A stretch of 64,000 bases of DNA from NCBI GenBank assembly GCA_014905635.1, contig JABVCE010000008.1, positions 930,001-994,000 on the forward strand. The letters run 5' to 3'. Source of the DNA: Scenedesmus sp. PABB004 (Eukaryota). The translations under genes and the position numbers were made by a program. The notes under the pieces are model-generated. The model made no database searches. It was not told the origin of the DNA and saw nothing but the letters and a program-made list of their open reading frames with translations. The first letter of the stretch is position 1. Every line of letters begins with the position of its first letter. Of the stretch, positions 9,208 through 64,000 are shown one piece after another.

Positions 9208-9668
9208 GCTGCGCTGAGGCGCGCCGAAGCTGGCCAGCGCGCGCAGGCGGCGATGCAACAACACAGCGGTTGAAGGCTCTCATCTCCCCCAACACCGCGC
9301 CCCTGCGCCGATCTCAGCCCGCGCCGGCGCCGCCGCCGCCGCCCAGCAGCTGGGCCAGCGCGGCGCGCAGCCTGGGCATGTCGCGCCGCGCCGCCCACTC
9401 GGCCGCCTTGCGGTAGCCCCGCGCAAACGCCGCCACTGCCGGCTCGCCCGGCCCCAGCCCCGCCAGGCGCTGCACCGCCGCGTCCAGCTCGTCCAGCTGC
9501 TCCGCCGGCGCCGCGAGGCAGTTCACGCTCAGCAGGTCCCACAGCACGTCTCCGGCCGCGGCCACGCTGGTGAAGGGCGGCAGCGCAAAGCCGGACGGCA
9601 GCGGGCAGTCGTCGTGCGCCGCCTGCTGCGCCCCGCCCGCGGCAGCCGCCGCCTCGGCCACTGCAGCC
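9208..9668. repeat. 461-bp direct repeat, copy 1 (partner 13418-13878)
   Basis: Matches at offset 4210 with a single mismatch that I could see (9557 C vs 13767 T). Confidence 0.95.
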
Positions 9669-12391
9669 GGGAGCGCCTCGGCTGCTTCAGGTGCGCTGGC
9701 CGGGGCCGCCGGCGAGCTCGCAGGCTGGGGCTGCGTCGCCGGGCTGCACTGGTGGTGGGCGCCCGCGACCAGGGCGGCGGCCACGCCGCCACCGCGCGCG
9801 ACTGCTGGTGCTGGCCGCTGCAGCTGCGCTGCCGCCGGCTGCTTGGCCACGGCCAGCGCCGCTGCCGCAGCGGCTGCGGGCGCCACCTCAGCAGGCACGT
9901 GCCCGGCGACGATGGCCTGCAGCAACTGCATGGTCGCGCCGCGCGCCTCGCCAGGCAGCGCGCCATGCTGCAGGGTGGCCAGCGCCTGCCGCCAGTCGCT
10001 GGCGCTGTCACCCGGCCCGCTGCTGGCGGTTGCTGCTGCGGCCGCCCCGCAGCCGCTGCGGCCCAGCGTGGCCGGCGTTGCCGGCTGCGCGGGGGCCTCG
10101 GTGCCGCACCGCGTGCCGCCGCTGGCGTCGCCCTCCGCGTGGCTGCTGCCGCCCTCACCCTCCACCTCGCTGGGGCCGTTGATGCCCGCGCCGCTGCCGT
10201 CCGCACCACGGCCAGGCTCGCCCTCCACGTGCAGCGTGATGCTGGCGCCATCGCTGGCGACGCTGGTCAGGCGGCGGCCCTTGAACGAGTGCAGCCCGGC
10301 GTCACCCAGGCCACGCAGGCAGTACTTGCGCTGGTAGCTCGAGTCATCCAGCTTGCTGGGGCTGGCCGGCGCAAGGCGCACCGTGCTGGCCCGTTGGCCG
10401 CGGCTTCCTGCGTGCAGGGCGGCAGATGGCACCAATGAGAGGCGCAGGCGCGGCTGCCGGCGCGTGCCCTGCGCAGCGCGGCCGCCGCTCACTGAGCGCC
10501 GGCAGCTCCGTGGGCACGCCGCCCACGCACAGCCGCAGCGGCAGCTCCAGCGGCCGCCTGAGCACGCCGAACAGCGGCTCCACGAAGCCCCTGTTGAGGT
10601 GGACGCCGTTGTTGTGCAGAGAGCTGTCAGAGAGCACCAGGTCCTGCAGCGTGGGCAGGGCGGCTGGCCAGTCAGCGCTTGGCTGCTCAGCAGCAGGCGA
10701 GGCTGCCCGCCGCGTCTGCGCCACATAAGGAGCCGCACCTTGGCCAGAAAGCGCTCGCCCCCCGCCAGCACAGGCGGCGGCAGCTGCGGCTGGACGCGGC
10801 CCGCCGCCGCCAGGTGCAGCGTGATGTCGGCGCCGTTGCTGGACATGGCCGTCACCTTGTGGCCCAGGTACGCCGCCAGCCCGGCGGCGCGCAGGCCGCG
10901 CACGTGGTGCCGCACCGCGCGGTCGCCGCGCGCTGGGCTGCGCGTGCGAGGGCACAATCCTCACCATCGGCGCCGCGCCGCCTGCGGGGCGGGGGTTGCG
11001 ATCAGGTTCAGCAGCGAGTGTCTGCCTGCACGGCACACGCTGACCGCAGCAGGCAGGCGCCCGCCGCACCTGGCGGCGCCACCGGCATGCCGTCCACCAC
11101 CAGCCGCAGCGGCAGCTCCAGCGGCTGCACCAGCTCGCCAAACTGGGAGTGCGCCAGCGCGTCACGCACTGTCAGACCAGTATGCATGGTGCCAGTGGTC
11201 AGCATCTGGCTCTGTGGAATGCAGAGGCGGCGGCAGCCCGTCAGCAGCGCTCTGTGCTTGAGCAGCAGGCAGCCAGCAGCCGCTCACCGTGGCCACGGAC
11301 GTCACAGCGTGGGACGGCGCGCCGCCCGCACCGCCACTGAGCCCCACGCCAGCTGGCTCCGCCTCCTCGTCGTCCGGCTCCTCGCTGCCGCCCTCGTCGC
11401 CGCTGCTGCCCTCACTGGCGCTGGCACTCTGCTCGTCCTCTGTCACCCACCGCCGCCGCTTGCGCTGCCGCCGTTGCGACCGCCGCAGCAGCCCCTCCTC
11501 AGGCACCGCCTTGATGTCCCACTGCTGCGCCACCACAGGCGGCGGCGGCGGCGGCGCTGCCACTGAGCCCGGCAGGGCCGGCAGCCGGCAGCGGTCCACG
11601 TCCGCCTGGCTGCAGCTGCCCCGGCGCACGAGCTTGCTGAGCGCCCTCATCTGCCAGTCAAGCGTGGCCAGCTGCTCCTCCGTGGACGCGCCGCTGCCCC
11701 CGCCACCGCCGGTCAGCGCCGCTGAGTCGAGCGGCTGCGCTGTGACAGCGCCGGCTGCCGCGACAGCAGCCGCCGCGGGCGCAGCGCCACCGTCCCAGCC
11801 GCCGCCTGTGCGCGGCGCGGCGAGGCTGCGGCTGCCGCTGTCGCTGCTCGCCGTGCGCAGCGCCGGGGCCAGCGGCGGCGTGCTCAGCGCCGGGGGCAGG
11901 CGCGGCTGCGCCCACAGTCCCTGCTGCTCCAGCACGTCTGCGGGCGTGCCTTCAGCTGCACGCACAGCCCAAGCGCCTGCCGCTGCCGCGAGGCCGCCGT
12001 CGAGGCTGTCGCCCGCTGCGCTGCTGCCGGCGGTGGCGCGCCAGCGCTTGGCGGCCGGGCTGCCGCCGCTGCCGGTGGTGTCGCAGCCAGCCTCGCCGCC
12101 ATGCGCAAGCGCCCGCTTGGCCGGCGCCGGGCCGCACGGTGGCACGCAGGTCAGGCCGCCGCCAGCCTCCACTGTGTGCGCGTCGCCGCTGCTGAGCTGC
12201 TGAAGCGCCGGCGACTCGTCCTCCAGCACCGTCACGCTCGCCAGCGCGGCCTCCCAGGCGCCCTGCGCCCACGTGGCCGGCGTGCCGCTCTGCTGCTGCA
12301 GCTGCGCCGCGCTGCCGTCGGCAGCCGCTGCAGCGCCGGGGGCCGCCAGGCGCTGATGGAGGAGAGCTGGGAAGTCCGGAGCCTCGGCCAT
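9314..12391 (-). CDS. Unknown family, member A (two ~100-aa repeats plus helical C-terminal domain); chimeric; frameshift near 10930 (pseudogene or assembly error)
   Basis: MAEAPDFPALLHQRLAAP..; collinear with 23154-26234 including introns; the C-terminus is identical to that of gene C (13524 onward). Confidence 0.7.
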
Positions 12392-12916
12392 GGTGTTTCC
12401 GGGGCGGGCCTCGGCGCACCGACGAGGCGCCGCGATGCTGGCGCCCGCCGCTGCTGCTGCGGCGCCGGGCGCCCGGCGGCGGGGCTGGGGCGCCCTGGAT
12501 CGGGCCCGAGACCACACGTCTGGGCGCGCTCTGACGCGTGGGGTGGCGCGCGGGCTGGTGCGTCGGCGGCTGCGGGCAGCGCGGCGTGCGGCGGGGCGCA
12601 GCAGCAGCGGCGGCGGCCGCTCGCGCGCGGCGCCGGCGCAGCCGCCCGTGAGCGCGGCTGTGGTGAGGACCGGCCTGGGACTGCACCACGCCACGCCGGG
12701 GCACACCGATAAGGGTGCCCCACGTGGGCGCGAGCGCGGGCGGGGTTCAGGGGCGCGGCGCCGAGCCAACAGCGCGGCGCCTACCAGGTCCAACCGCCGC
12801 AGCAGCATGCCCATGGGCCAGCGACACAGTAAGCAACGGCAATGCGACAAACGTCGGCCGCAAGCAACTGCGCCGCGCGCGCGCAAGCACCCACCGCCCT
12901 CCGCACGCGCGCGCCG

Positions 12917-13414
12917 TCAGCCACCGCGGTGGCTGACGGCACGCGGTCGGCCGACCGCGTGCTGCAGCAGCTCGCGCAGCACCTGCTGGACGCGCGGCGT
13001 GTTGCGGCGCGCCACCTGGCCGGGGAGGAGCCCGCGTTGGGCGAACGGCGGCGCAGCGAAAGGGCTCGATCGCGGCGGCGGTCGGCGGCGGCGTTCACAC
13101 GGCGCGCGCGCGGCTGCCTGGTGCCCGCCCCGCGCTCTCGCTCCTGGAGCAACCGCCGCCGGCGTCGCGCGTGCTCTGCGCAGAGAACCCCGCGCGCGGC
13201 GATCATTTGCTGCCACCCAGTTGCGCAGCTTGCGGTAGTTGAGCTCAAAGCGGGCCAGCCGGCTGCCCGGCTGGGCGCCGGCCGCCGCCTGCCCGGCCAG
13301 TCCGCGCAGGGCCTCCATGGCCGCCTCCAGCTGCTCCAGCTGCTCGTCCGGCGCGGCCAGGCAGTCCATGTCCACGAGGCCCCACAGCGCCGACTTCGCC
13401 GCCTCCAGCCCGGC
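12917..13414 (-). pseudogene. 5'-truncated copy of the B-type C-terminal coding tail, containing a 201-bp intron
   Basis: AGLEAAKSALWGLVDMDCLAAPDEQLEQLEAAMEALRGL..NW[intron]VARRNTPRVQQVLRELLQHAVG matches 23154-23423. Confidence 0.85.
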
Positions 13415-13417
13415 GCA

Positions 13418-13878
13418 GCTGCGCTGAGGCGCGCCGAAGCTGGCCAGCGCGCGCAGGCGGCGATGCAACAACACAGCGGTTGAAGGCTCTCATCTCCCCC
13501 AACACCGCGCCCCTGCGCCGATCTCAGCCCGCGCCGGCGCCGCCGCCGCCGCCCAGCAGCTGGGCCAGCGCGGCGCGCAGCCTGGGCATGTCGCGCCGCG
13601 CCGCCCACTCGGCCGCCTTGCGGTAGCCCCGCGCAAACGCCGCCACTGCCGGCTCGCCCGGCCCCAGCCCCGCCAGGCGCTGCACCGCCGCGTCCAGCTC
13701 GTCCAGCTGCTCCGCCGGCGCCGCGAGGCAGTTCACGCTCAGCAGGTCCCACAGCACGTCTCCGGCTGCGGCCACGCTGGTGAAGGGCGGCAGCGCAAAG
13801 CCGGACGGCAGCGGGCAGTCGTCGTGCGCCGCCTGCTGCGCCCCGCCCGCGGCAGCCGCCGCCTCGGCCACTGCAGCC
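13418..13878. repeat. 461-bp direct repeat, copy 2
   Basis: Partner of 9208-9668. Confidence 0.95.
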
Positions 13879-16800
13879 AGGGCCGCCAGGGCTGCTGCGG
13901 GTGCGCTGGCCTCGGCCGCCTGCTGTGCGGCGCCCGGCGCAGCCGCTTCGCCGGCCGCGTCGCCGCCATTGGTCGCAGCTGGCAGCCCGCCGCCACTGCC
14001 GCCGTCGCCGCCGTCGCCGTCGCTGCCGCCACGGCACGTGCTGAACACCGCCAGTGCTGCCGCCGCAGCCGCGGCCGGCGCGACGCTGATGGGCACCTCG
14101 CCCGCCACGACGGCCTGCAGCACCTGCACCGACACCGTGTGCGCCTCGCTGGCGCTGACGGGCGCGCCGGTGTGCAGCCTGGCCAGCGCCTGCACCCAGC
14201 CGCCGCAGCCGCCGACCCGGGCCTCGCTGCGCCCGCCTGCGGCCGCACGCCCGGGCGGCTCCGGCGCCAGCCCCGGCGGGGGCGGCGCCTGGTGCCAGCC
14301 CGCCTCCGCGCCCGCCTGGCCGCTCGCCTGGTGCGCGAGGCCGCTGAACAGCCCCATCCCCTCCATCTCCTGGCCCAGCGCAGCCAGCGGCTGCACCGCG
14401 AGCTCACCGCCCGCGGGGTCACTCGGCTGCGTCACCAGCGCGTCGGCCGCCGACAGCGCCGTCGCCGCCGGGCTGGCCACGTGGACGCGCAGGTGGTTGG
14501 GCGCCGCGGCGCTGAACCCCACACGCGTGCAGCCCTGCACGTCTCCGAAGAGCAGGCTCCCACCGCGCCAGAGCTTGTTGGCCACCACGCTGCAGGGCAC
14601 CGGGCCGGCTGCGCGCGGGCGGCGGGCGGCCGGGTGCGTCAGCCCGCGGGCGGCCAGCTGGGAACGGCGGCGGCGGCGGCGGCCAGCAAGCAGCCACGAC
14701 GCACCCACGCGCTGGCCGTCCCGGTGCACCGACGTCTGCAGCTCCCTGTCGTCGCTGCCGCCAAACGCGCGCAGCAGCGAGGCGGGGATGGGCAGGCTGC
14801 TCTCGTGGCCCAACGTGATGGCGGCGCTGCGGCGCGACTCCTGCGCGGCGGCACGGCAGCAGCCACACTCGTCCGCGCGTCGCGCGGCAGCCAAGGGCGG
14901 GTACGCGCCCCGCATGCGCACCCAGCGCGGCAGAGGCCGGCGGCCCAGCCGCGCTGCCGGCCGAGCGCCAGGACACCCACCCTGAACGCCTCCTGGTGCC
15001 ACGCCGCCGCCGGCAGCGCGTCCTCGGTCGCGCCCGCCGCCGCAATGCCCGCCGGCGACAGCAGGTGCAGCTCCAGGCGCTGCGCGCCGACCGCGCGCCA
15101 CCGGCTCACCACGTGGCCGAGGAAGCGCGACAGCCCCGCCGCCGCGCCGTTGGTGACGCGGATGACGCCGCGCCCCCACTGCCCGACCAGCGTCACCGGC
15201 AGGCAGCCGCGCGTGTCTGCATGCGGGGTGCGGGGAGCGGCGCGCGCGCGCAGTCGGGCGCCGGGATCCGTGGCGGCGCCGGCGGCCGGGGCTGGGGCCT
15301 GCGCCGCCGCGCACAGCGCGCGGCGGCCGCGCGCGCCGCACCCTGCAGCGCGTCGTCCACGTAGACCACGAGCGGCACGGTGGCAGGCAGGCGGTCCCAC
15401 ACCGAGCGCACCAGCTCTGTCCCGATGCCCAGCCCGCGCGCGAGCTTGGCGCTGGTCAGCACGTACGCCTGCCCGGCCGGCGCGGCAGCGGCGTGCGCGG
15501 CGTGAGCTCGAGGCGCCGCTGCAGCGCGCGGGGCTGACGCAGCCTGTCGTGCGGGCTGGAGCGCCGGCGCACCGTGATGAAAGTGACGCCCGCGGCCGGC
15601 GGCGCCGCCGCGGCGCCCGCCGCCGCGGCGCCCGCCGCCGTTGCCGCCGCTCCCGCGGGGCCCCCGTGCGCTGCCGCGGCGCCGTCCGCCGCGCCGCCCG
15701 CCGTGCCCGCCTCGACGCCGTCGACCGCCGCAGCGCCGCCGCCCTGCTCCGGGCCGGACAGGTGCAGCTGCGCGGCGCGGCGGGGGGAAGGCTGTCAGCG
15801 CGGCGGCGCCCCAGACCGCTGCCGTGCGCGCCGAGGGTGCGGCCCCCCAGCCAGCGGGCGCACCTGGACGAAGCAGGGCGCCGCCGTGCGCAGCTCCAGC
15901 ATGCGCCGGCCCGCCAGCTGGCTCAGCGTGGGCCTCAGCGCTGCGGGCGTCACGAGCTGCGAGTCGGCGTAGACCGTGACCGGCAGCGGGCCGGCTGCGG
16001 GCGGCGGGGGCGGGGTGACGCGTCGGCGGGTGACGACCTTGCGCAGCCGGCGCGGCGGCCAGCGCCGCGGGCGCCCAGCACGCGCAGCGGCGGCCGCCTC
16101 ACCCACGCGCGCGCCGGCGCTGAAGACCGAGAGCAGCACGCTGGCGTTGAGCACGGGCTGGCCAAAGGCGGCCGTGGTCAGGCGCTTGCTCAGGTAGATG
16201 CGGCGCAGGTGCGACTTGCCCAGGATGCCCTGTTCGAGGCCGCCGTGGCGCTGGTCGCGCGCGCGGCGGCGGCGGCAGGCGGCGGCAGGCGGCGGCAGGC
16301 GGCGGCAGGCGGCGGCAGCGTGGGCGCAGCCTGGGAAAAAGGGCGGGCGCGCAGCTGGCGCACAGGGCCACAGGCGCAGCAGGCTCACCGCGTGCATCGC
16401 TGCACTGAACCAGGCGGACGCGGGCACGCTCGCCTCGGCCGCGCGCGCCGCCGCGGCGTCGTGGCCGAGCCGCGCGACCGCGCCGGCGCTGTCTGCGCTG
16501 CCGCCCCCGCTGCCGCCGCCGCCGCTGCAGCCATCGAGCTGGTTGTCCTCGCCGTCCTCGTCACCCACGTCGTCCTCCTCTCCGTCGTCCTCCCCGCACA
16601 CATACTCATCATCATCGCCGTCGCGGCCGCCGCAGCGCCCCGAGGCGCCGCCGTCGCTGTCGCTGGCGCTGCCCCAGCCGCCGCGCGGCGCGGCGCCGCG
16701 GCCGGGGCGCCACGTGTCCCGCCAGAAGCGGCGCACGACCTGCGCGAGAAGCCGGCGCCGGGGCTCGACGTCCACCTGCGCGGCGCGGGGCGCCGGCGGC

Positions 16801-23025: not shown

Positions 23026-23270
23026 GGTTCCCAACTGCCGCAGTAGCGTGCCCAGCAAGAGACACATCAAGCAACCGCAATACGACACTGGACCCGCATG
23101 CAACGGCACCTCGCACGCGAGCGCCTTGCACCGCCCTCCGCCCGCGCGCGCCGTTAGCCACCGACCGCGTGCTGCAGCAGCTCGCGCAGCACCTGCTGTA
23201 CGCGCGGCGTGTTGCGGCGCGCCACCCAGTTGCGCAGCCTGAGGTAGTTGAGCTCAAAGCGCGCCAGCCG
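23026..23270. repeat. ~240-bp diverged direct repeat (3' coding end plus 3' flank of gene B); partners 26626-26865 and about 12786-13260
   Basis: Shared ggttcccaac..cgacactggacccgc..cgcgtgctgcagcagctcgcgcagcacctgctg..gttgagctcaaagcgcgccagccgg. Confidence 0.9.
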
Positions 23271-26234
23271 GCCGCCCGGGTCGGCCCCGGCCGCCGCCTG
23301 TCCGGCCAGCCCGCGCAGGGCCTCCATGGCCGCCTCCAGCTGCTCCAGCTGCTCGTCCGGCGCGGCCAGGCAGTCCATGTCCACGAGGCCCCACAGCGCC
23401 GACTCCGCCGCCTCCAGCCCGGCATACGCTGGCAGCGCAAAGCGGGGCGGCAGCGGGCAGTCGTCGTGCGCCTGCTGCGCCCCGCCCGCGACAGCCGCCG
23501 CCTCGGCCGCTGCAGCCGGGGGCGCCTTGGCTGCTGCAGGTGCGCTGGCCTGGGCCGCTGGCGAGCTCGAGCTCGCGGGCTGGGGCTGCGCCAGGCTGCT
23601 CTGGTGGGCGCCCGTGACCAGGGCGGCGGCCACGCCGCCACCGCGCGTGCCTGCTGGTGCTGGCCGCTGCAGCTGCACTGCCGCCGGCTGCTGGGCCACG
23701 GCCAGCGCCGCTGCAGCAGCGGCTGCGGGCGCCACCTCAGCAGGCACGTGCCCGGCGACGATGGCCCGCAGCACCTGGATGGGCGCGCCGCGCGTCTCGC
23801 CAGGCGGCGCGCCGCGCTGCAGGGTGGCCAGCGCCTGCCGCCAGTCGCTGGCGCCGTCACCTGCCCCGCTGCTCGTGGTTGCCGCTGCGGCCGCCCCGCC
23901 GCTGCGGCCCAGCATGGCCGGCGGCGCCGGCTGTGCGGGGGCCTCGGCGCCGCACCGCGTGCCGCCACTGGCGTCGTCCTCCTCGTCGCTGCCCTCACCC
24001 TCCACCTCGCTAGGGCCGTTGCTGCCCGCACCGGCCCCATCGGCACCACGGCTGGGCTCGCCCTCCACGTGCAGCGTGATGCTGGCGCCGTCGCTGGCGA
24101 CGCCCGTCAGGCGGCGGCCCTTGAACGCGTGCAGCCCGGCGGCGCCCAGGCCGCGCAGGCGGTATTCGCGCCGGTAGCTCGGCTCACCTAGCTTGCCGGG
24201 GCTGGCCGGCCCGAGGCACACCGTGGTGCTGGCCCGCTGGCCGTGGCCCCCTGTGTGCAGGGCGGCAGACGGCACCAATGAGAGGCGCAGTTGCAGCTGC
24301 CGGCGCGTGCCCGGCGCAGCGCGGCCGCCGCTCACCGCGCGCCGGCAGCTCCGTGGGCACGCCGCCCACGCACAGCCGCAGCGGCACCTCCAGCGGCCGG
24401 CTGAGCGCGCGAAACAGCGGCTCCACGAAGCCCCTGTTGAGGTGGACGCCGTTGTTGTGCAGAGAGCTGTCAGAGAGCACCAGGTCCTGCAGCGTGGGCA
24501 GGGCGGCTGGCCAGTCAGCGCTTGGCTGCTCAGCAGCAGGCCAGGCTGCCTGCTGCATCTGCACCACATAAGGAGCCGCACCTTGGCCAGAAAGCGCTCG
24601 CCTGCCGCCAGCCCAGGCGGCGGCAGCTGCGGCTGGACGCGGCCCGCCGCCGCCAGGTGCAGCGTGATGTCGGCGCCGTGGCTGGACATGGCCGTCACTT
24701 TGTGGCCTTGGTACGCCGCCAGCCCGGCGGCGCGCAGGCCGCGCAGGCGATGCTCCCTCGACGCGTTGGTTGCGTTCCAGGTGGACACCAGGAGCACCAT
24801 GCGGCCGGCGGCTGCGAAACAGGGCAAGCGGTGCAGTGAGCAGCGCGGGCGGCTGCGCAGCCGGACAAGACCCAGCCGCTCACTCTGTGCACGCCGCCGT
24901 CGCGCGCACCTGGCAACTCCACCGGCGCGCCGTCCACCACCAGCCGCAGCGGCAGCTCCAGCGGCTGCACCAGCTCGCCAAACTGGGAACACACCAACGC
25001 GGCACGCACATACAGACCAGTTCTGACCGTGTTCATGGTCAGCATCTGGCTCTGCGGATTGCAGAGGCGGCGGCAGCCCGTCAGCAGCGCTCCTGTGCTT
25101 GAGCAGCAGGCAGCCAGCAGCCGCTCATGAGCTCACCGTGGCCACGGACGTCACAGCGCGGGAGGGCGCGCCGCCCGCACCGCCACTGAGCCCCACGCCA
25201 GCTGGCTCCGCCTCGTCGTCGTCCGGCTCCTCGCTGCCGCCCTCGTCGCCGCTGCTGCCCTCACTGGCGCTGGCACTCTGCTCGTCCTCTGTCACCCACC
25301 GCCGCGGCTTGCGCTGCCGCCGCTGCGACCGCCGCAGCAGCCCCTCTTCAGGCACCGCCTTGCTGTCCCGCTGCTGCGCCACCACAGGCGGCGGCGGCGG
25401 CGGCGCTGCCACTGAGCCCGGCAGGGGCGGCGGCCGGCAGCGGTCCACGTCCGCCTGGCTGCAGCTGCCCCGGCGCACGAGCTTGCTGAGCGCCCTCATC
25501 TGCCGGTCAAGCGTGGCCAGCTGCCCCGCCGTGAACGCGCCGCCGCCCCGGCCACCGCCGTTCAGCGCCGCTGACTCGAGCGGCTGCGCTGTGACAGCGC
25601 CGGCTGCCGCGACAGCAGCCGCCACGGGCGAAGCGCCACCGTCCCAGCCGCCTGTGCGCGGCGCGGCGAGGCTGCGGCTGCCGCTGTCGCTGCTCGCCGT
25701 GCGCAGCGCCGGGGCCAGCGGCGGCGTGCTCAGCGCCGGGGGCAGGCGCGGCTGCGCCCACAGTCGCTGCTGCTCCAGCACGTCTGCGGGCGTGCCTTCA
25801 GCTGCACGCACAGCCCAAGCGCCTGCCGCTGCCGCGAGGCTACCGCCGAGGCTGTCGCCCGCTGCGCTGCTGCCGGCGGTGGCGCGCCAGCGCTTGGCGG
25901 CCGGGCTGCCGCCGCTGCCGCTGCTGTCGCAGCCAGCCTCGCCGCCATGCGCCAGCGGGCGCTTGGCCGGCGCCGGGCCGCCGGGGGGCAGCAGGCAGGT
26001 CAGGCCGCCGCCAGCCTCCACTGTGTGCGCGTCGCCGCTGCTGAGCTGCTGAAGCGCCGGCGACTCGTCCTCCAGCACCGTCACGCTCGCCAGCGCGGCC
26101 TCCCAGGCGCCCTGCGCCCACGTGGCCGGCGTGCCGCTCTGCTGCTGCGCCGCGCTGCCGTCGGCAGCCGCTGCAGCGCCGGGGGCCGCCAGGCGCTGAT
26201 GGAGGAGAGCTGGGGAGTCCGGCGCCTCGGCCAT
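23154..26234 (-). CDS. Unknown family, member B (appears intact)
   Basis: MAEAPDSPALLHQRLAAP; NLS-like PAKRPL, PAAKRWR and RRQRKPRR; repeats MLTMNTVRTGLYVRAALVCSQFGELVQPLELPLRLVVDG and LVLSDSSLHNNGVHLNRGFVEPLFRALSRPLEVPLRLCVGG; stop TAA at 23154. Confidence 0.75.
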
Positions 26235-26747
26235 GGCGTTGCCGGGGCGGGCCTCGGCGCACCGACGAGGCGCCGGGATGCTGGCGCCCGCCGCTGCTGC
26301 TGCGGCCCGCGCCCGGCGGCGGGGCTGAAGCGCCCTGGATCGGGCCCGAGAGCGCGTGTCTGGGTGAGGTCTGACGCGTGGGCTGGCGCGTGGGCTGGTG
26401 CGTGGGCGGCTGCGGGCAGCGCGGCGTGCAGGGAGCAGGCAGCAGCGGCAGCGGCGGCCGCTCGCGCGCGGCGCCGGCCGGCCGCCCGTGAGCGCGGCTG
26501 CGGTGTGGGTCGGCCTGGGACTGCACCACGCCACGCCGGGGCACACCGATAAGGGTGCCGGCACGTGGGCGCGAGCGCGGGCGGGGTTCAGGGGCGCGGC
26601 GACGGGCCAACAGCGGCGCCAACCAGGTTCCCAACACCTGCCGCAGCGTGCCCAGCGACACAGCAGGCAACGGCAAACGACACTGGACCCGCACGCAACT
26701 GCGCCGCGCGCGCAAGCGCCACCATCGCCCTCCGCCCGCGCGCGCCG

Positions 26748-26865
26748 TCAGCCGCCGCCCGCGTGCTGCAGCAGCTCGCGCAGCACCTGCTGGATGCGCG
26801 GCGTGTTGCGCCGCGCCACCCAGTTTCGCAGCCTGAGGTAGTTGAGCTCAAAGCGCGCCAGCCGG
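26748..26865 (-). pseudogene. 5'-truncated, intronless copy of the B-type C-terminal tail
   Basis: RLARFELNYLRLRNWVARRNTPRIQQVLRELLQHAGGG*. Confidence 0.85.
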
Positions 26866-26906
26866 GTGAGGGATTACCGGCGTCCTGCGGGAACCGCCGC
26901 CGCGCC

Positions 26907-29010
26907 TCAGTTGCGCGCCTTCATCGACGCGCGCCGCGCCTTGCCCGGGCGGTTGGCGCCGCCGCCGGGCTTCTTGCTGACGCCGCCCCGGGCGCCGGGC
27001 GGCCCGCCGCCGCCGCGCCCGCGCCCGCCGCCGCCGCCGCGCCCGCCGCCAAAGCCGCCGCGCCCGCCGCCGCCCCGGCCGCCGCCAAAGCCGCCGCCGC
27101 GCCCGCCGCCGCGCCCGCGGCCGCCGCCGCGGCCGCCCCTGCCGCCGCCGCCGCGCCCGCCGCCGAGGCCGTCGTCGAAGCGCGCCGGCTTGTAGCCGCT
27201 CATGTCGGCGGCGCTGAACGCGTCGTTCTGCTTCGCCAGGCGCTTGCGCCCGCCAAAGCCAAACTTGGCGTCCTTGAGCTGGCGCTTCTTGTTGGGCGTG
27301 CGCTCGCTCGGCGCGATGCGCACGCCCGGGCGCTGCCCCGGCGGCCTCTTGCCGCCCGCGCCGCCTGCCGCGCCGGGCTTGCCCGCGCCGCCCCGCATGC
27401 CGCGCATCTCGGCGTCAAAGTCGAGCTCGCCGGCAAAGCCCTGCGCCGAGGCGGCGCCGGCGGCGGGTGTGCCGCGCGCCCGCGCGCCCGCGCGCCCGCT
27501 CGTGCACCGCGCCCCACCCGCCCGCCCGCCCCGCCCGCGCGGCCGCGCGGCCCCGCGCCGCGCCGCGCCGCGCCGCGGCCTCTCACCGACTTCTCGCGCT
27601 GCTTGCGCAGCGCCGAGACCTGGCTGATCGCGCGCTTCTTCTCCGCCGTGCGCTCCTTCTGCTTCTCAGCCTGCACCTGCTTCGCGTACGCCTTCTGCTC
27701 CCGCGCCTTGCGCCTGCGCGGGCAGGGGCGGGCACGCGCGCGCGCCGCACGTGGGCGGCGGCGCCGCCGCGCGCCTCTGCCGCCGCGCCGCGCGCCTCTG
27801 CCGCCGCGCCTCCGCCGCCGCGCCGCCGCTCGCCGCCGCGCCTCGCGCCGCGGGCGCCCGCGCCGCACGCACCGCTCCGCGGCCTGGTCGATCTGCTGCT
27901 GCTCGTACATGAGTCGGTCCTTGATGCGCGCCATCTGCTCGTCGCTCTTGACCATCTCCGCGTAGTAGTCCGGCGGCCGCAGCCAGGGCCGCCCCGACGC
28001 GGTGAAGCGCCCGATCGCCTCCTGCGTCGCCGCAAGCGCCTGCGCGGCGCGCGCGGCGCGGCGCGGCGCGTGGCGGGCGCGTCAGCGGGCGCGGGGGCGT
28101 CGGCGCGCGCGCCCACGCGGCGCCGCGGCCGGCGCGGGCAGCGCGGCGGCGGTGACCCGGCGGATGCGGGTGCGGGTGCGGGTGCGGGTGCGGGTGCGGG
28201 TGCGGGTGCGGGTGCGGGTGCGGGTGCGGGTGCGGGTGCGGGTGCGGGTGCGGGTGCGGGTGCGCGCCTGGTTGTAAAAGGCGAGCTCGCGCTCGAGGTC
28301 GTCGTCGACGTCGGCGACCTCGGTCGGCGCGGCCGACGTGATGACCAGGCTCTCCTCCCACGGCTGCTCATCGATCCAGGCAATGTCCTCCAGCTTCTCG
28401 TGCAGCGCGTCTGCGCGGCGGCGCGCGCGGCGCGCGCGGCGCGCGCGGGGCCGCGTGGCGCGGTGCGAGCGCGCACGCGCTGCGCGGCGGTGCCGCCGGG
28501 CGCGGCCACCGCCCCGCGCCGCGCCGCGCCGCGCCGCGCCGCACCCGCATCGTAGATGCGCCGCCGCGCGGCCGCGCCGCCGCCGCCGCCCTCCTCGTCG
28601 CTGTCCTCCTCCTCCTCCTCTTCGTCCTCCTCGTCCTCCGCCTCGTCCTCGTCGTCGCTGCCGCCGCCGGCCTGCGCCGCCGCAAAGCGCGCCGCGCGCT
28701 CGGCTGCCTCGGCGGCCAGCTGCGGGATGTCGCGCGTGCCGCCGCCGCCGCCGCCGCCGCCGAAGAGCTGCTCGTCGTCAAAGTCCTCCGACATGCTCTC
28801 GTCGCCGTCGTCGTCCGAGGGCGCCTGCGGTCGCCGCGGCCGCGCGGCGGCGGCGCGCGCACGGGCCCGGTCGTCGGCAGCTGGCAAGCGGCGGCCGGCG
28901 GCCGGGCCGCCCGCGCGGCGCGCTGCGGCGCGGGCGCGCCAGGGGGTGGGCCAGGCGCGCACCTGCGGCCGCGAGGGCGGCGCCGCCTTGCGCTGCTTCG
29001 GCTTGGGCAT
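26907..29010 (-). CDS. EBP2: rRNA-processing protein EBP2
   Basis: VDDDLERELAFYNQ|ALAA; WLRPPDYYAEMVKSDEQMARIKDRL; KRQLKDAKFGFGGRKRLAKQNDAFS; RGG tail ending NRPGKARR. Confidence 0.95.
28165..28264. repeat. (TGCGGG)16 hexamer microsatellite, intronic in EBP2
   Basis: Directly visible inside intron 28040-28267. Confidence 0.95.
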
Positions 29011-49702: not shown

Positions 49703-50342
49703 CTCGGCGCTCGGCAGCGGCCCAGCAGCGCGCGCGGTCGCGGCAGTCACGAGCTCGATGGGGGCGGCGTCAGGCGGCGGCGCCTTGTAACGCATGCCCA
49801 GTGCTGCGGCGGCACTGAGAGGCCGCGCGCCGCTGCGTGCGTCGGTCGTCGCTCCAGGGCCGCTCTGCGGCCGCGGTTTGGCGCACGCGCGGGGCTTGGC
49901 CGCGCGGGCGTGCTGAAGCCTCGCCACTCCGTTGCGCTGGCCGTCTAGCTTGCCACCACCTGCCTGCTCGCCGGCGCCGCCAGCGCACACGGCGCAGCAG
50001 CGCCGCAGCGCCGCAGCTGCCCCCGCCGCGTGCGGCAAGCGCGTCCGCGCGGAGCCTGTGGATCCCTGGCAACGGCCTGTGCCCGGGGGGCCGCCGGAGC
50101 GGGCGTCCTGGGCGCAGCGCGCCCTGGCGGAGGCGGGTGAGGCTTGTGAGAGCATCGCGCCCGCTCCGCCGCGCCCTGCCGGCCCAGTCCGCTCGGTTCT
50201 GGCTGCAGCGCGCTGCGATCCGTGGAGAGGCAGCGCGCACCTCTACCCCGGCGCGGCCGCAGCGACGTTCGCCGCCGGCGCTGCGGGCGCCAGGCGGGCA
50301 CGGCCCCGCCGCTGCCGCTGCGCGCCGCGCCCACGGCCCCCG
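49703..50342. repeat. ~630-bp non-coding direct repeat, copy 1 (partner 58601-59233)
   Basis: Long shared blocks, e.g. gagctcgatgggggcggcgtcaggcggcggcgccttgtaacgcatgccca and gagcgggcgtcctgggcgcagcgcgccctggcggaggcgggtgagg. Confidence 0.92.
49786..49790 (+). promoter_or_regulatory. TGTAA polyadenylation signal (chlorophyte type)
   Basis: About 135 nt downstream of the stop at 49652. Confidence 0.6.
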
Positions 50343-50421
50343 CCGCGCCGCTCGCGCAGGCACTCTCTCTCCTAGCTGAAGCGTCAGCCCGGGTGGCAGT
50401 CGCCGCCCTGACCGCGGCCGC

Positions 50422-58600: not shown

Positions 58601-59233
58601 CTCGGCGCTCAGCGGCGCTGCAGCCGGCAGCACACCGCGCGGTCACGGCAGTCGACGAGCTCGATGGGGGCGGCGTCAGGCGGCGGCGCCTTGTAACGCA
58701 TGCCCAGCGCTGCGGCGGCACTCAGAGGCCACGCGCCGCGCGGCGCGCCGCGCGCGTCGGTCGTCGCCCCAGGGCCGCGGTTTGGCGCACGCGCGGGGCT
58801 TGGCCGCGGGCTCGGCGGGCTCTCGCCACTGCACCGCCTGCCACCTGCCGCCGCCTAGCTCGCCGCCACCTGCCTGCTCGCCGGCGCCGCTCACGCACAC
58901 GGCGCAGCGCTGCGCCGCTGCCCTCGCCGCGTGCGGCAAGTGCGTCCGCGCGGAGCCTGTGGAGTGCTGGCAGCGGCCTGTGCCCGGCGGGCCGCTGGAG
59001 CGGGCGTCCTGGGCGCAGCGCGCCCTGGCGGAGGCGGGTGAGGGCTTGTGAGAGCATCGCGCCCGCTTCGCCGCGCCCTGCCGGCCCAGCCCGCCCGGTT
59101 CTGGCTGCAGCGCGTTGCGATCCGTCGAGAGGCAGCGCGCACCGCCACCCCGGCGCGCCTGCAGCGACGTTGGGCCCGCCGGGGCGGGCGGGCAGGGCGC
59201 CGCCGCTGCTGCGCGCCGCGCCCACGGCCCCGC
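58601..59233. repeat. ~630-bp non-coding direct repeat, copy 2
   Basis: Partner of 49703-50342. Confidence 0.92.
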
Positions 59234-59329
59234 ACCGCTGCGGCCCGCCGCAGGCGTCCCGTGTGAGATGAGCGTGCCTGGAGCCGCCGGCTAGCCCCGT
59301 GCACGATCCAGCCGGCTCCTCGCGGCAGC

Positions 59330-62300
59330 ATGGCGGGGCACTGGCGCTACACGGCGAGCGTGCCGCTGTGGATCATGGGCAAGGACGGAGACGGCGAGAA
59401 GGTCGCGGTGCGCGCGCCTGGCAGCGCCCCGGCGCGTGCGGCACGTGGCGCCAGCGCCGCGGCCCCGCCCCTGGGAGGGGCAGCTGCGCCGCCGCCGCCG
59501 CTCAGCCGCGCCGCGCCGCGCCGCGCCGCGCCGCGCCGCGCCGCGCCCGCGGCAGCTGTACCGCGTGAACGTGCTGCTGCAGTCGCCCGACGCGCCGGAG
59601 CTGGGCACGCGGCCGCCGTTCTTCGTGCTGCGCCGCTACTCGCAGTTCAGGCAGCTGCACGCAGAGGTGCGCGCCCGCGACGGCAACGAACCGCGCGCGC
59701 TCCGCACGCTGCGGGGCCGCCGGCGGTTCGCACCCCCCTACCCCCCCCTCCCCTATCCCCTCCTCCGCCCTCGCCCCTGCCCCCCACGCCTGCCGCCGCC
59801 GCCGGCGCCGCCGACGACGACGACGACGACGCCGCCGGCGCCGCCGGCGCCTGGCCCCGCGCGCCGCCGCAGCTGAGCAAGGCCTTTCCAGAGCTCATGA
59901 GCGACCGCGCGCTCGCGCCGCCGCCCAAGCACACGCTCGCGGCGCTCGGCGGCGGCCAGCAGCACAAGGAGCTGCTCGACCGGTGCGCCCGCTTGCCCGC
60001 CAGCGCCCGCTTGCCCGCCAGCGCCCGCTTGCCCGCCAGCGAGCGCGCCGACGCACGCCGACGCGCGCCGGCGCGCGCCGGCCGCCGCCCGCCGCGCAGG
60101 CGTCGCGGCGAGCTCGAGGCGTGGCTGTGGGCGCTGATCTCGCGGCCGGAGCTCGCGCGCAGCGCCGCGCTGCGGGCGTTCCTGGAGTTTGATCGCGCCC
60201 TCGCGCGCGCGCAGGCGGCACGGTGCGTGCGGCGCGCGCGGCGCGGAGCCGGCACCCCCAGGCATCCCTCCCCTGCCCCCCTCGCCCCCCCCTTCCCTTG
60301 CCGCGCCGGCCGCGACCTGCCGCGACCGCCCGCCCGCCGCCGCCGCCGCAGCCACGCCAGCAGCAGCGCGACGCAGCTGGCGGGCGGCAGCAGCGGCCGC
60401 AGCAGCCCGCTGCCGCCGGCGTCGCCCTTTCCAGCTGCGACGCCCACGCACGGCGGCAGCGGCGGCGGCTTTGGCAGCAGCGGCGGCCTCGGCTCGCACG
60501 GCCAGCTCATGTTCGCTGGCAGCACGGCAGCCACGTCGTCGGCGGCGTCGTCCGAGGCGGGCGACTGGGAGGCCGGCGGAGAGCGGGGCGGCCACCACGC
60601 GCACCAACACAGCGCCGGCGGCCGGAGCTACGGCGAGCCGGACGGTGCCGGCGGCCTGCCAAGCCCGCTGCCGCACCCGCGCCTGGCGCCCATCGCCACC
60701 AGCGCGCCGGCGCTGCAGCCGCGAGGCGACAGCACGGGCAGCGGCGCCCCGGGCCCGCAGCAGCGGCTGGGGCTGCGCCTGGAGCAGCGCTCGGACGTGC
60801 GGCGCCTGGTGGACATGCTGGCGCGGCGCGTGCGGCAGGCGGGCGACGACCTCGCGGCGGCGGTGGCCGAGGTGCGGCTGCGCGCGAGCGCGCCGCCCGC
60901 GCCGCACAGCCAGCGCGCTCACGCTGCCGCCCCTGGCGCAGGTGACGGCGCTGCAGTCTGCCAACGCGTGCCTCAGCGACGCGCTCGCGTCGGCGCGGGA
61001 GGAGCTGGAGCTCCAGCCCGGCGGCAGCGTGGCGACGCAGCTCGAGGCGGTGCGCGCCGCGCGCACACGGCCGCGCCTCGCCGGCCGTGTGCCCTGTGTG
61101 CCGAGCGGCCGCCCGCCGCGCGCTGCCTGCCGCGCGCGCGCGCGCGCGCGCCGCCGCCCCGCGCGCCCCGCCTCCGCGCAGGAGCGGGCAGAGGTGGCGC
61201 GGCTCAAGCGTGCGCTGAGCGAGGCGACCGCTGCAGGGGAGCGTGAGTATCTAGACCTGGAGCAGCAGCTGGCAGAGGCCGAGCGCGCGCGCGCCGCCGC
61301 GGCCGGCCGCGCGCGCGAGCTGGAGCAGCAGCTGGAGCACGCGCCGCACGGCGCGCTCGCGGCGGTCGCTGAGGCGTCCGACGAGGGCGGCGGCCCGGCC
61401 GCTGCCGAGGTCGACGGGGCCGCCAGGCTGCGGCAGGAGCTGGGGGAGGCGCGGGAGCAGCTGGAGCAGTTGCGACAGGAGCTGGCGGCGGCCGCTGCTG
61501 GCCGCCAGGCAGCCGAGGCGGCGCTGCATGAGCAGCAGGAGCGCGCTGCCGCCGCCGCCTCCGCTGCCGCAGCCAAGGCGCGGGAGGGTCAGCTGTTGCT
61601 TGCGAAAGAGGTTCAGCGGCTGCGCGGCGAGCTGGCACACGCCAAGGAGGCGCACGGCGCCGCAACCGCCGAGCTGGCGGCGTCTGTCGCAGCCGCGGCC
61701 GCACCAGCCACGTGCGACGCCCAGCAGCTGGAGGAGCTGCAGGCTCAACTGGCCGAGGCGCAGGCCGCGGCTGCGGCGGCCACTGGTGCGCTCGCAGAGC
61801 AGCGGGCGGCGGCGGCGAGCCAGGCGGAGCAGCTGGCTGAGGTGCAGGCGCTGCAGGCCGCGCTTGCAGAGGCGCGTGCCAGCATGGCCGAGGCGGAGGC
61901 CGGCCGCGCCGCCGCGCGGACAGACGCCGCCGCGGCCCAGGCGCAGGCAGAGGCCGTCGCGCGGCAGCTGGAGGCAGCGACAGCGGCCGCCGCCACGAGC
62001 GGTGCTGCCGAGGACAAGGCCGCGGGCCTGACAGAGGACCTGCAGGCGGCCGCGCAGCGGGAGCAGGCGCTGCAGCAGGCGCTGGCAGCGGCGCAGGAGG
62101 AGCTGGGTGCGGCAAACGCGCGGGCGGCGGCGGCAGCGGCAGACCTGCAAGCGCAGCTGGGCGCGGCGCGCGCTGGCGCCGAGAAGCTGCAGAGCGACGC
62201 AGCGGCGGCGCAGCAGGCGGCTGCCGCGGCGCAGGAGCAGCTCGACGCCGCCGCGGCGGCCATGTCGGCGGCCGAGGCGGACGCCGCCGCCGCCCGGTCC

Positions 62301-64000
62301 GAGCTCAGCGCCGCGCAGGAGCGGCTGCAGGCAGCGCAGCACCAGGAGCAGCAGCTGCGCGGGCAGCTGGCCGAGGCGGAGGCCGGCCGCGCCGCCGCGC
62401 GGACAGACGCCGCCGCGGCCCAGGCGCAGGCAGAGGCCGTCGCGCGGCAGCTGGAGGCAGCGACAGCGGCCGCCGCCACGAGCGGTGCTGCCGAGGACAA
62501 GGCCGCGGGCCTGACAGAGGACCTGCAGGCGGCCGCGCAGCGGGAGCAGGCGCTGCAGCAGGCGCTGGCAGCGGCGCAGGAGGAGCTGGGTGCGGCAAAC
62601 GCGCGGGCGGCGGCGGCAGCGGCAGACCTGCAAGCGCAGCTGGGCGCGGCGCGCGCTGGCGCCGAGAAGCTGCAGAGCGACGCAGCGGCGGCGCAGCAGG
62701 CGGCTGCCGCGGCGCAGGAGCAGCTCGACGCCGCCGCGGCGGCCATGTCGGCGGCCGAGGCGGACGCCGCCGCCGCCCGGTCCGAGCTCAGCGCCGCGCA
62801 GGAGCGGCTGCAGGCAGCGCAGCACCAGGAGCAGCAGCTGCGCGGGCAGCTGGCCGAGGCGGAGGCCGGCCGCGCCGCCGCGCGGACAGACGCCGCCGCG
62901 GCCCAGGCGCAGGCAGAGGCCGTCGCGCGGCAGCTGGAGGCAGCGACAGCGGCCGCCGCCACGAGCGGTGCTGCCGAGGACAAGGCCGCGGGCCTGACAG
63001 AGGACCTGCAGGCGGCCGCGCAGCGGGAGCAGGCGCTGCAGCAGGCGCTGGCAGCGGCGCAGGAGGAGCTGGGTGCGGCAAACGCGCGGGCGGCGGCGGC
63101 AGCGGCAGACCTGCAAGCGCAGCTGGGCGCGGCGCGCGCTGGCGCCGAGAAGCTGCAGAGCGACGCAGCGGCGGCGCAGCAGGCGGCTGCCGCGGCGCAG
63201 GAGCAGCTCGACGCCGCCGCGGCGGCCATGTCGGCGGCCGAGGCGGACGCCGCCGCCGCCCGGTCCGAGCTCAGCGCCGCGCAGGAGCGGCTGCAGGCAG
63301 CGCAGCACCAGGAGCAGCAGCTGCGCGGGCAGCTGGCCGAGGCGGAGGCCGGCCGCGCCGCCGCGAGGACAGACGCCGCCGCGGCCCAGGCGCAGGCAGA
63401 GGCCGTCGCGCGGCAGCTGGAGGCAGCGACAGCGGCCGCCGCCACGAGCGGTGCTGCCGAGGACAAGGCCGCGGGCCTGACAGAGGACCTGCAGGCGGCC
63501 GCGCAGCGGGAGCAGGCGCTGCAGCAGGCGCTGGCAGCGGCGCAGGAGGAGCTGGGTGCGGCAAACGCGCGGGCGGCGGCGGCAGCGGCAGACCTGCAAG
63601 CGCAGCTGGGCGCGGCGCGCGCTGGCGCCGAGAAGCTGCAGAGCGACGCAGCGGCGGCGCAGCAGGCGGCTGCCGCGGCGCAGGAGCAGCTCGACGCCGC
63701 CGCGGCGGCCATGTCGGCGGCCGAGGCGGACGCCGCCGCCGCCCGGTCCGAGCTCAGCGCCGCGCAGGAGCGGCTGCAGGCAGCGCAGCACCAGGAGCAG
63801 CAGCTGCGCGGGCAGCTGGCCGAGGCGGAGGCCGGCCGCGCCGCCGCGCGGACAGACGCCGCCGCGGCCCAGGCGCAGGCAGAGGCCGTCGCGCGGCAGC
63901 TGGAGGCAGCGACAGCGGCCGCCGCCACGAGCGGTGCTGCCGAGGACAAGGCCGCGGGCCTGACAGAGGACCTGCAGGCGGCCGCGCAGCGGGAGCAGGC
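59330..64000 (+). CDS. PX-domain coiled-coil protein, EREX/EREL-like; runs off the right edge
   Basis: WRYTASVPLW..|LYRVNVLLQSP..VLRRYSQFRQLHAE|LSKAFP..PPPK..ELLDR|RRGELEAWLWALISRPELARSAALRAFLE; RLEQRSDVRRLVDMLARRV; long Ala/Glu/Gln coiled coil. Confidence 0.85.
61885..64000 (+). repeat. 483-bp coding tandem repeat (161 aa), at least 4.4 copies
   Basis: Units start at 61885, 62368, 62851, 63334 and 63817; near identical (one synonymous CGG>AGG seen at 63366). Confidence 0.97.

Follow-up and report, generated by a model that had tools for sequence, protein, structure and literature searches.

A 201-base insert with GT..AG borders and a flanking six-base repeat in a duplicated gene tail of Scenedesmus sp. 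PABB004

The window analyzed here is a 64-kb stretch of contig JABVCE010000008.1 (64,000 bases, positions 930,001 to 994,000), and all coordinates refer to it. The window is nuclear DNA of a green alga, with a GC content of about 75-84% over its entire length. The coding segments, which are short and strongly periodic, alternate with gaps of about 100-200 bases and contain parts of RAP, EBP2, Mem_trans, WD40 and cNMP-binding domains. The best relatives of the EBP2 protein are those of Scenedesmus sp. NREL 46B-D3 and Tetradesmus obliquus (65-66% identity). A hexanucleotide microsatellite (GCGGGT, 17.5 copies) lies at 28160-28264 within an inferred EBP2 intron. At 61872-64000 a tandem array with a 483-base unit (4.4 copies, 99% identical) was observed, which runs past the window end.

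Three-frame translation and a three-way alignment revealed a minus-strand gene family whose members share a conserved C-terminal domain, about 100 residues long, that occurs in two diverged types. Domains of the alpha type end the genes GA1 (13524..13829, a complete domain with a TGA stop at 13524-13526) and GA2 (9314..9619, stop 9314-9316, uninterrupted at the homologous Trp). The beta type ends the gene GB1, whose domain, B1, is complete and uninterrupted (23154..23471, stop 23154-23156). Two fragments of the beta type are also present on the minus strand. Fragment B2 consists of 41 codons (26748..26873) and follows both the stop codon of EBP2 (26907-26909) and a second stop in frame. Fragment A, the host of the insert described below, starts in mid-domain and consists of two parts, 13217..13414, which is 95% identical to 23221-23423, and 12917..13015, which ends with a TGA stop at 12917-12919. 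The last 302 residues of GB1 have 12 weak relatives (E between 1e-7 and 8e-4) and none at 1e-10 in an exhaustive, profile-free search of 1.84 billion representatives; one of the 12 is a hypothetical protein of Scenedesmus sp. NREL 46B-D3. A Pfam search with the long open reading frames around the site and the 12 relatives gave nothing except sub-threshold coiled-coil matches, and the segments 23154-23471, 13527-13829 and 9317-9619 encode a C-terminal domain of chlorophycean proteins without a Pfam family. An 11-row alignment of B1, the GA1 alpha tail and nine database relatives (alignment A3) was submitted to AlphaFold, which returned a confident four-helix domain (pLDDT 90.7, pTM 0.82); a fold search of the PDB with this model gave no match at E <= 0.001. 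All 11 rows share the Trp that immediately precedes the insertion site, and the site itself is predicted to lie inside helix 3 (residues 68-84).

The homology breakpoint at which fragment A begins (13414-13417) is 106 bases past the stop codon of GA1. The 3' flank of GA1 (13418..13523, minus strand) is identical to 9208-9313 behind GA2, and the homology to GA2 ends at 13418. Translation of the stretch upstream of fragment A revealed no ATG ahead of the domain, and the open reading frame is limited by an in-frame stop at 13490-13492. With the insert left out, 13265->9454 matches 26868->23306 at 88-92%, which puts copy A at the edge of a segmental duplication of 3.6 kb. B2 is the positional counterpart of copy A; since two stops precede it, it is a plain relic that marks the edge of the duplication. 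Fragment A is probably a duplication relic as well, and maybe no exon at all, because it starts in mid-domain behind the GA1 stop, its counterpart B2 lies behind the EBP2 stop, and it carries a 27-base scar (see below). The conserved residues of the domain are all intact in copy A, which counts against a relic but has little weight at 5% divergence; the tail differs from B1 in about 9 codons (counted by eye), too few for dN/dS. A consensus-type acceptor, CGCAG at 13419 (score 5.9), precedes fragment A and is phase-compatible, by hand count only, with the inferred donor at 14921. Through this acceptor fragment A may serve as an alternative last exon. The automated phase test, which applied the alpha frame throughout and is invalid above 14608, paired 14921 with 13424 instead. 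The motif TGTAA is a poly(A) signal; none was found near the tails, and with 5 sites in the whole window the motif is uninformative.

The two parts of fragment A are separated by the insert, whose formal GT..AG unit occupies 13016..13216 on the minus strand. Its 201 bases comprise 195 inserted bases and one copy of a six-base duplication. Sequence reading and alignment place the direct repeat GGTGGC (GCCACC on the plus strand, perfect at 6/6 positions) at both junctions; the upstream copy (13212..13217) is the source of the GT, and the first G of the downstream copy (13011..13016) completes the AG. On the minus strand the junctions read AAC TGG / GTGGCA...GGCCAG / GTGGCG, the TGG codon lying at 13219-13217. 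Exact removal of the insert restores the frame. The insert is also open as it stands, with 67 codons in frame and no stop (open reading frame 12917..13489). With G and C each at about 0.4 and A and T each at about 0.1, six-base identity of the flanks is expected by chance at about 0.34^6 = 0.0015 (arithmetic), so the repeat is taken as a mechanistic mark. The GT..AG borders, in turn, are weak evidence, because the hexamer duplication gives the GT and a terminal A alone is then needed; A makes up 24 of the 201 bases. The insertion and its absence from both homologous copies, as claimed in the original prediction, were confirmed by blastn and MAFFT, and the GCCACC repeat was found as described. 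Of the perfect GT-AG intron also claimed there, the borders and the frame-restoring removal stood, whereas the splice sites are off the local consensus and the host may not be an exon.

The composition of the insert is non-coding. Its coding score, which is based on codon position, is negative in all six frames, and the strong GC3/GC2 codon periodicity of the flanks vanishes within it. Inferred introns of the window score between -22.6 and -1.4. A translated in-frame segment was rejected on the score in the tail frame, -39.9 compared with +22.4 for a flanking exon of equal length; the 67 additional residues would also break the predicted helix 3 right after the invariant Trp.

A blastn search with 12601-13700 against the whole window showed that the homology of copy A breaks exactly at the insert. 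On its 3' side (minus strand), 12601-13016 matches 26442-26820 and 12790-13016 matches 23031-23226; on its 5' side, 13212-13414 matches 23221-23423 (95%) and 13212-13265 matches 26815-26868. The match ranges overlap in the paralogs by 6 bases (23221-23226 and 26815-26820), and the MAFFT alignment shows a single clean gap of 201 columns in both beta paralogs. The insert is missing from 4/4 homologous copies in the window, namely the beta tails B1 and B2 and the alpha tails of GA1 and GA2. All 10 non-query sequences of alignment A3 (the alpha tail and nine database homologues) are continuous at the insertion site; the nine database homologues weigh little for polarity, as they may be genomic or transcript contigs. 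With the beta tails taken by themselves, a single event suffices, on either branch. Insertion in A is the more parsimonious, because the alpha outgroup is without the insert and the alternative takes a gain and a loss. The insert would then be the derived state, and polarity favours insertion in copy A, which is the outcome of the polarization by family members that had been proposed. The perfect repeat argues for a recent event. Thus, of the recent intron gain put forward earlier, the insertion and its derived state are upheld by the outgroup tails, while weak splice sites and a doubtful exon host speak against the intron.

Metagenome contigs were compared with 11500-15500, the metagenome sharing 0.09 of the words. 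A 96-base DNA contig from a freshwater metagenome skips 13010->13212 and differs at 3/59 aligned bases, the same count at which B1 and B2 differ from A. A second contig has 7 bases specific to B1 between 13414 and 13789. Both contigs fit a paralog and not an insert-free allele, because their differences match those of the paralog type.

The splice sites of the insert were compared with introns inferred, without RNA, within the 64-kb window. Frame-compatible GT/GC..AG pairs were sought in 71 gaps between periodic segments; refinement gave 70 choices, the best 42 of which were kept as the intron set. Kept donors are GTGCG (29/42), GTGAG (8/42) or other (5/42), and 40/42 kept acceptors are GCAG. 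For a nuclear genome of about 80% GC the splice consensus of these inferred introns (median length about 130 bases) is unusually strict. The donor of the insert, GTGGC, deviates at two near-invariant positions (C/A at +4, G at +5), and its acceptor, CCAG, is without the G at -4. They score -3.0 and 0.38, respectively, while the minima of the kept introns are 2.44 and 4.02. Sites scoring as low were chosen in 0/70 donors and 3/70 acceptors; 53% of the 4317 GT and 37% of the 6144 AG sites of the window equal or beat those of the insert. The splice model was seeded with a splice prior, and the choice was repeated with the coding score alone. GTGCG/GTGAG then made up 32/66 donors (background 11.7%) and GCAG 36/66 acceptors (background 33.5%), compared with 4/66 for GTGGC (background 6.7%) and 9/66 for CCAG (background 14.8%). 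GTGGC and CCAG are at background level, no better than random GT and AG sites. The length of the insert is ordinary (local introns 42-402, median 129.5), and its GC content of 0.78 is in the range of inferred introns. No CTNAY branch motif was found in its last 70 bases; the motif is present in just 13/42 inferred introns and its lack is not decisive. The pyrimidine share of the last 30 bases is 0.67 (median of inferred introns 0.60). Weak sites do not exclude splicing, because weak splice sites are reported for new introns (PMC2809761).

A second scar lies in copy A near the stop codon, 55-90 bases downstream of the insert. The alignment of copies A and B gives copy A 27 extra bases at 12928-12954 (MAFFT columns 541-567), gapped in B1 and B2. 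Together with their surroundings (12908..12962, minus strand) they form two abutting perfect palindromes of 12+12 bases and a 3-base duplication. The order is flank, its reverse complement, the reverse complement of the other flank, and the other flank (12 + 12 + 3); inverted pairs were found at 12939-12962 (100%) and 12908-12945 (95%). The 3.5-kb alignment of A and B contains 50 indels, and those of 201 and 27 bases are the largest, followed by one of 16; this ranking leaves out edge rows of 25 and 13 bases, which are aligner artefacts from the 201-base insert. Both big rearrangements of the duplicated unit lie less than 300 bases from its edge. Paired palindromes are expected from hairpin-capped or fold-back-primed break ends, or as the footprint of transposon excision. 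Transposon excision footprints and P nucleotides are palindromic additions that stem from hairpin-capped DNA ends; the 27-base scar is like them in its layout of flank and reverse complement and in the 3-base duplication, and unlike them in that its 12-base arms are long for such footprints and no element is present at the scar. The link between the scar and the 201-base insert is proximity only.

The best explanation, which is held to be probable with moderate confidence, is that the insert is non-coding DNA captured by end joining in a duplication relic, its intron-like borders being a by-product. The 3.6-kb segmental duplication would have brought with it, at its edge, a truncated copy of the C-terminal exon. 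A double-strand break in this copy would have been repaired via end joining, with capture of about 195 bases of non-coding nuclear DNA, and fill-in of the staggered ends would have duplicated the hexamer GGTGGC. The hexamer holds a GT and the captured piece would end in A by chance, which would give the GT..AG borders; exact removal would restore the frame. Host fragment A is probably untranslated, and the insert is probably spliced inefficiently, if at all, because the truncated copy lies 106 bases behind the GA1 stop. That the insert arose by repair, that its host has no function and that the insert is not spliced were inferred, not directly shown. Hallmarks of end joining are present, namely a short direct repeat at the junctions and an insert unlike its flanks. 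What counts against repair is that 201 and 27 are both multiples of three and that the frame is open. By chance such lengths are expected in about 1 in 9 cases, and 67 codons without a stop have about even odds at the GC content of the window (arithmetic); under coding constraint, multiple-of-three lengths and an open frame would be expected. Sections of PMC3020277 describe novel introns with short direct repeats in Daphnia, Drosophila and Aspergillus and attribute them to end-joining capture at staggered breaks. The insert is like the introns described there in its repeat across both junctions, its unrelated sequence, its occurrence as a single copy as far as seen, and its presence or absence between close homologues. 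It is unlike them in that paralogs, and not alleles or orthologues, are compared, in that splicing is only putative, in that the host is probably an exon fragment without function, and in the palindromic scar adjoining it. As it stands, a GT..AG pair with a flanking repeat is insufficient to call an intron or an introner, because the GT stems from the duplicated hexamer and fragment A is probably a relic of duplication.

A genuine new intron, removed by the spliceosome at GT(13216)/AG(13016) and arisen via break repair or a single transposon insertion in a fragment that is expressed as an alternative last exon or as part of the GA1 3' UTR, is rather unlikely, yet it is the alternative that survives best. 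Exact removal not only restores the frame but would rejoin the invariant Trp to the remainder of predicted helix 3. The non-coding composition is similar to that of inferred introns, length and pyrimidine share are within or above local values, and the consensus acceptor at 13419 could bring fragment A into a transcript. On the other side stand a donor and an acceptor that score like random sites, the missing CTNAY motif (for what it is worth), and a host that starts in mid-domain behind a stop codon. A stronger form, in which an intron has been caught at birth, is unlikely: a break-repair insert in a duplicated terminal exon would already be spliced despite sites far from one of the tightest consensuses known. 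If true, the newborn intron would be tolerated because its host exon is a spare copy, and segmental duplicates would be nurseries in which proto-introns arise and improve. If the insert is spliced, it would represent a dated single-event intron gain with the mechanism still legible (a perfect duplication beside a second repair scar), and a useful test of how weak the sites of a new intron may be in an alga of about 80% GC with a strict consensus.

An older intron of the beta tails, kept in A and precisely deleted in the ancestor of B1 and B2 by end joining of the two hexamers or by cDNA recombination, is decidedly unlikely. A section of PMC3020277 proposes that introns may be deleted precisely when repeats at their two splice sites pair. 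In the 3' UTR B1 and B2 are closest to each other (86% identical, compared with 82% and 74% between A and them), so one loss would be enough. However, both alpha outgroup tails are without the insert, which calls for a gain plus a loss, and a perfect 6/6 repeat with off-consensus sites is unexpected in an old, selected intron. The flanking introns and intergenic DNA are also still present in the B copies (3.5 kb aligned), and this speaks against a template of cDNA. Precise loss in a sister copy by way of an RNA template, which the original prediction offered as its second option, is disfavoured on the same two grounds, the alpha outgroups and the retained introns and intergenic DNA of the sisters.

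A multi-copy introner, i.e. a non-autonomous DNA transposon whose six-base target-site duplication supplies the 5' splice site, is very unlikely. In passages of PMC9860276 an introner family is defined as at least four similar introns in unrelated genes of one genome. Target-site duplications of 3-9 bases are given there, in some families the duplication provides the 5' splice site and the element the 3' site, and terminal inverted repeats occur in just 72/177 families. The same passages report introners to be efficiently spliced and aquatic green algae to be rich in them. The insert resembles introners so described in its six-base duplication, which falls in the 3-9 base range, in the GT taken from the duplication, in that exact excision would restore the frame and in its aquatic algal host, and families without inverted repeats are on record in that source. 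The role of the flanking duplication as supplier of the GT, as in some introner families, was borne out. The insert differs in being single in 64 kb, in being without inverted termini, and in its weak splice sites, which contrast with the efficient splicing reported. Searches of the 64 kb, with about 70 inferred introns, turned up no further copy or fragment; blastn at E <= 1e-5 returned the self match only. In a short-word search of the window, the matches listed were all of 23 bases or fewer and consisted of GC-rich simple sequence. A 20-base word of the insert occurs in 10 metagenome contigs (56-68% GC), with chance matches of 20-23 bases only. No inverted pair joins the two insert ends, in agreement with the earlier statement that a terminal inverted repeat is absent. 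An introner-like origin, also suggested earlier, is therefore not supported: the window holds no second copy, the termini are not inverted, and the splice sites are random-like.

The GA1 and GA2 tails share a block of 283 bases (13418-13700 = 9208-9490) that is 100% identical and covers the ends of the alpha tails and the 3' flank, while the paralogous sequence around it is 84% alike. GA2 is a mosaic: up to about 9490 it resembles GB1 (88%), and from there on it is identical to GA1. The identical block and the mosaic suggest recent gene conversion or template switching. An assembly artefact, in which a chimeric contig across the repeated gene family would make the insert or its context unreal, is the least credible reading, for although this identical block and the public occurrence of the sequence in a low-cover metagenome only would fit it, an assembler would not make a clean 6-base duplication around unique sequence, and whichever side of the identical block is trusted, fragment A comes after an alpha tail with its flank. 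Another direct duplicate pair was observed elsewhere in the window, at 49703-50361 and 58601-59255, with 83% identity over about 690 bases.
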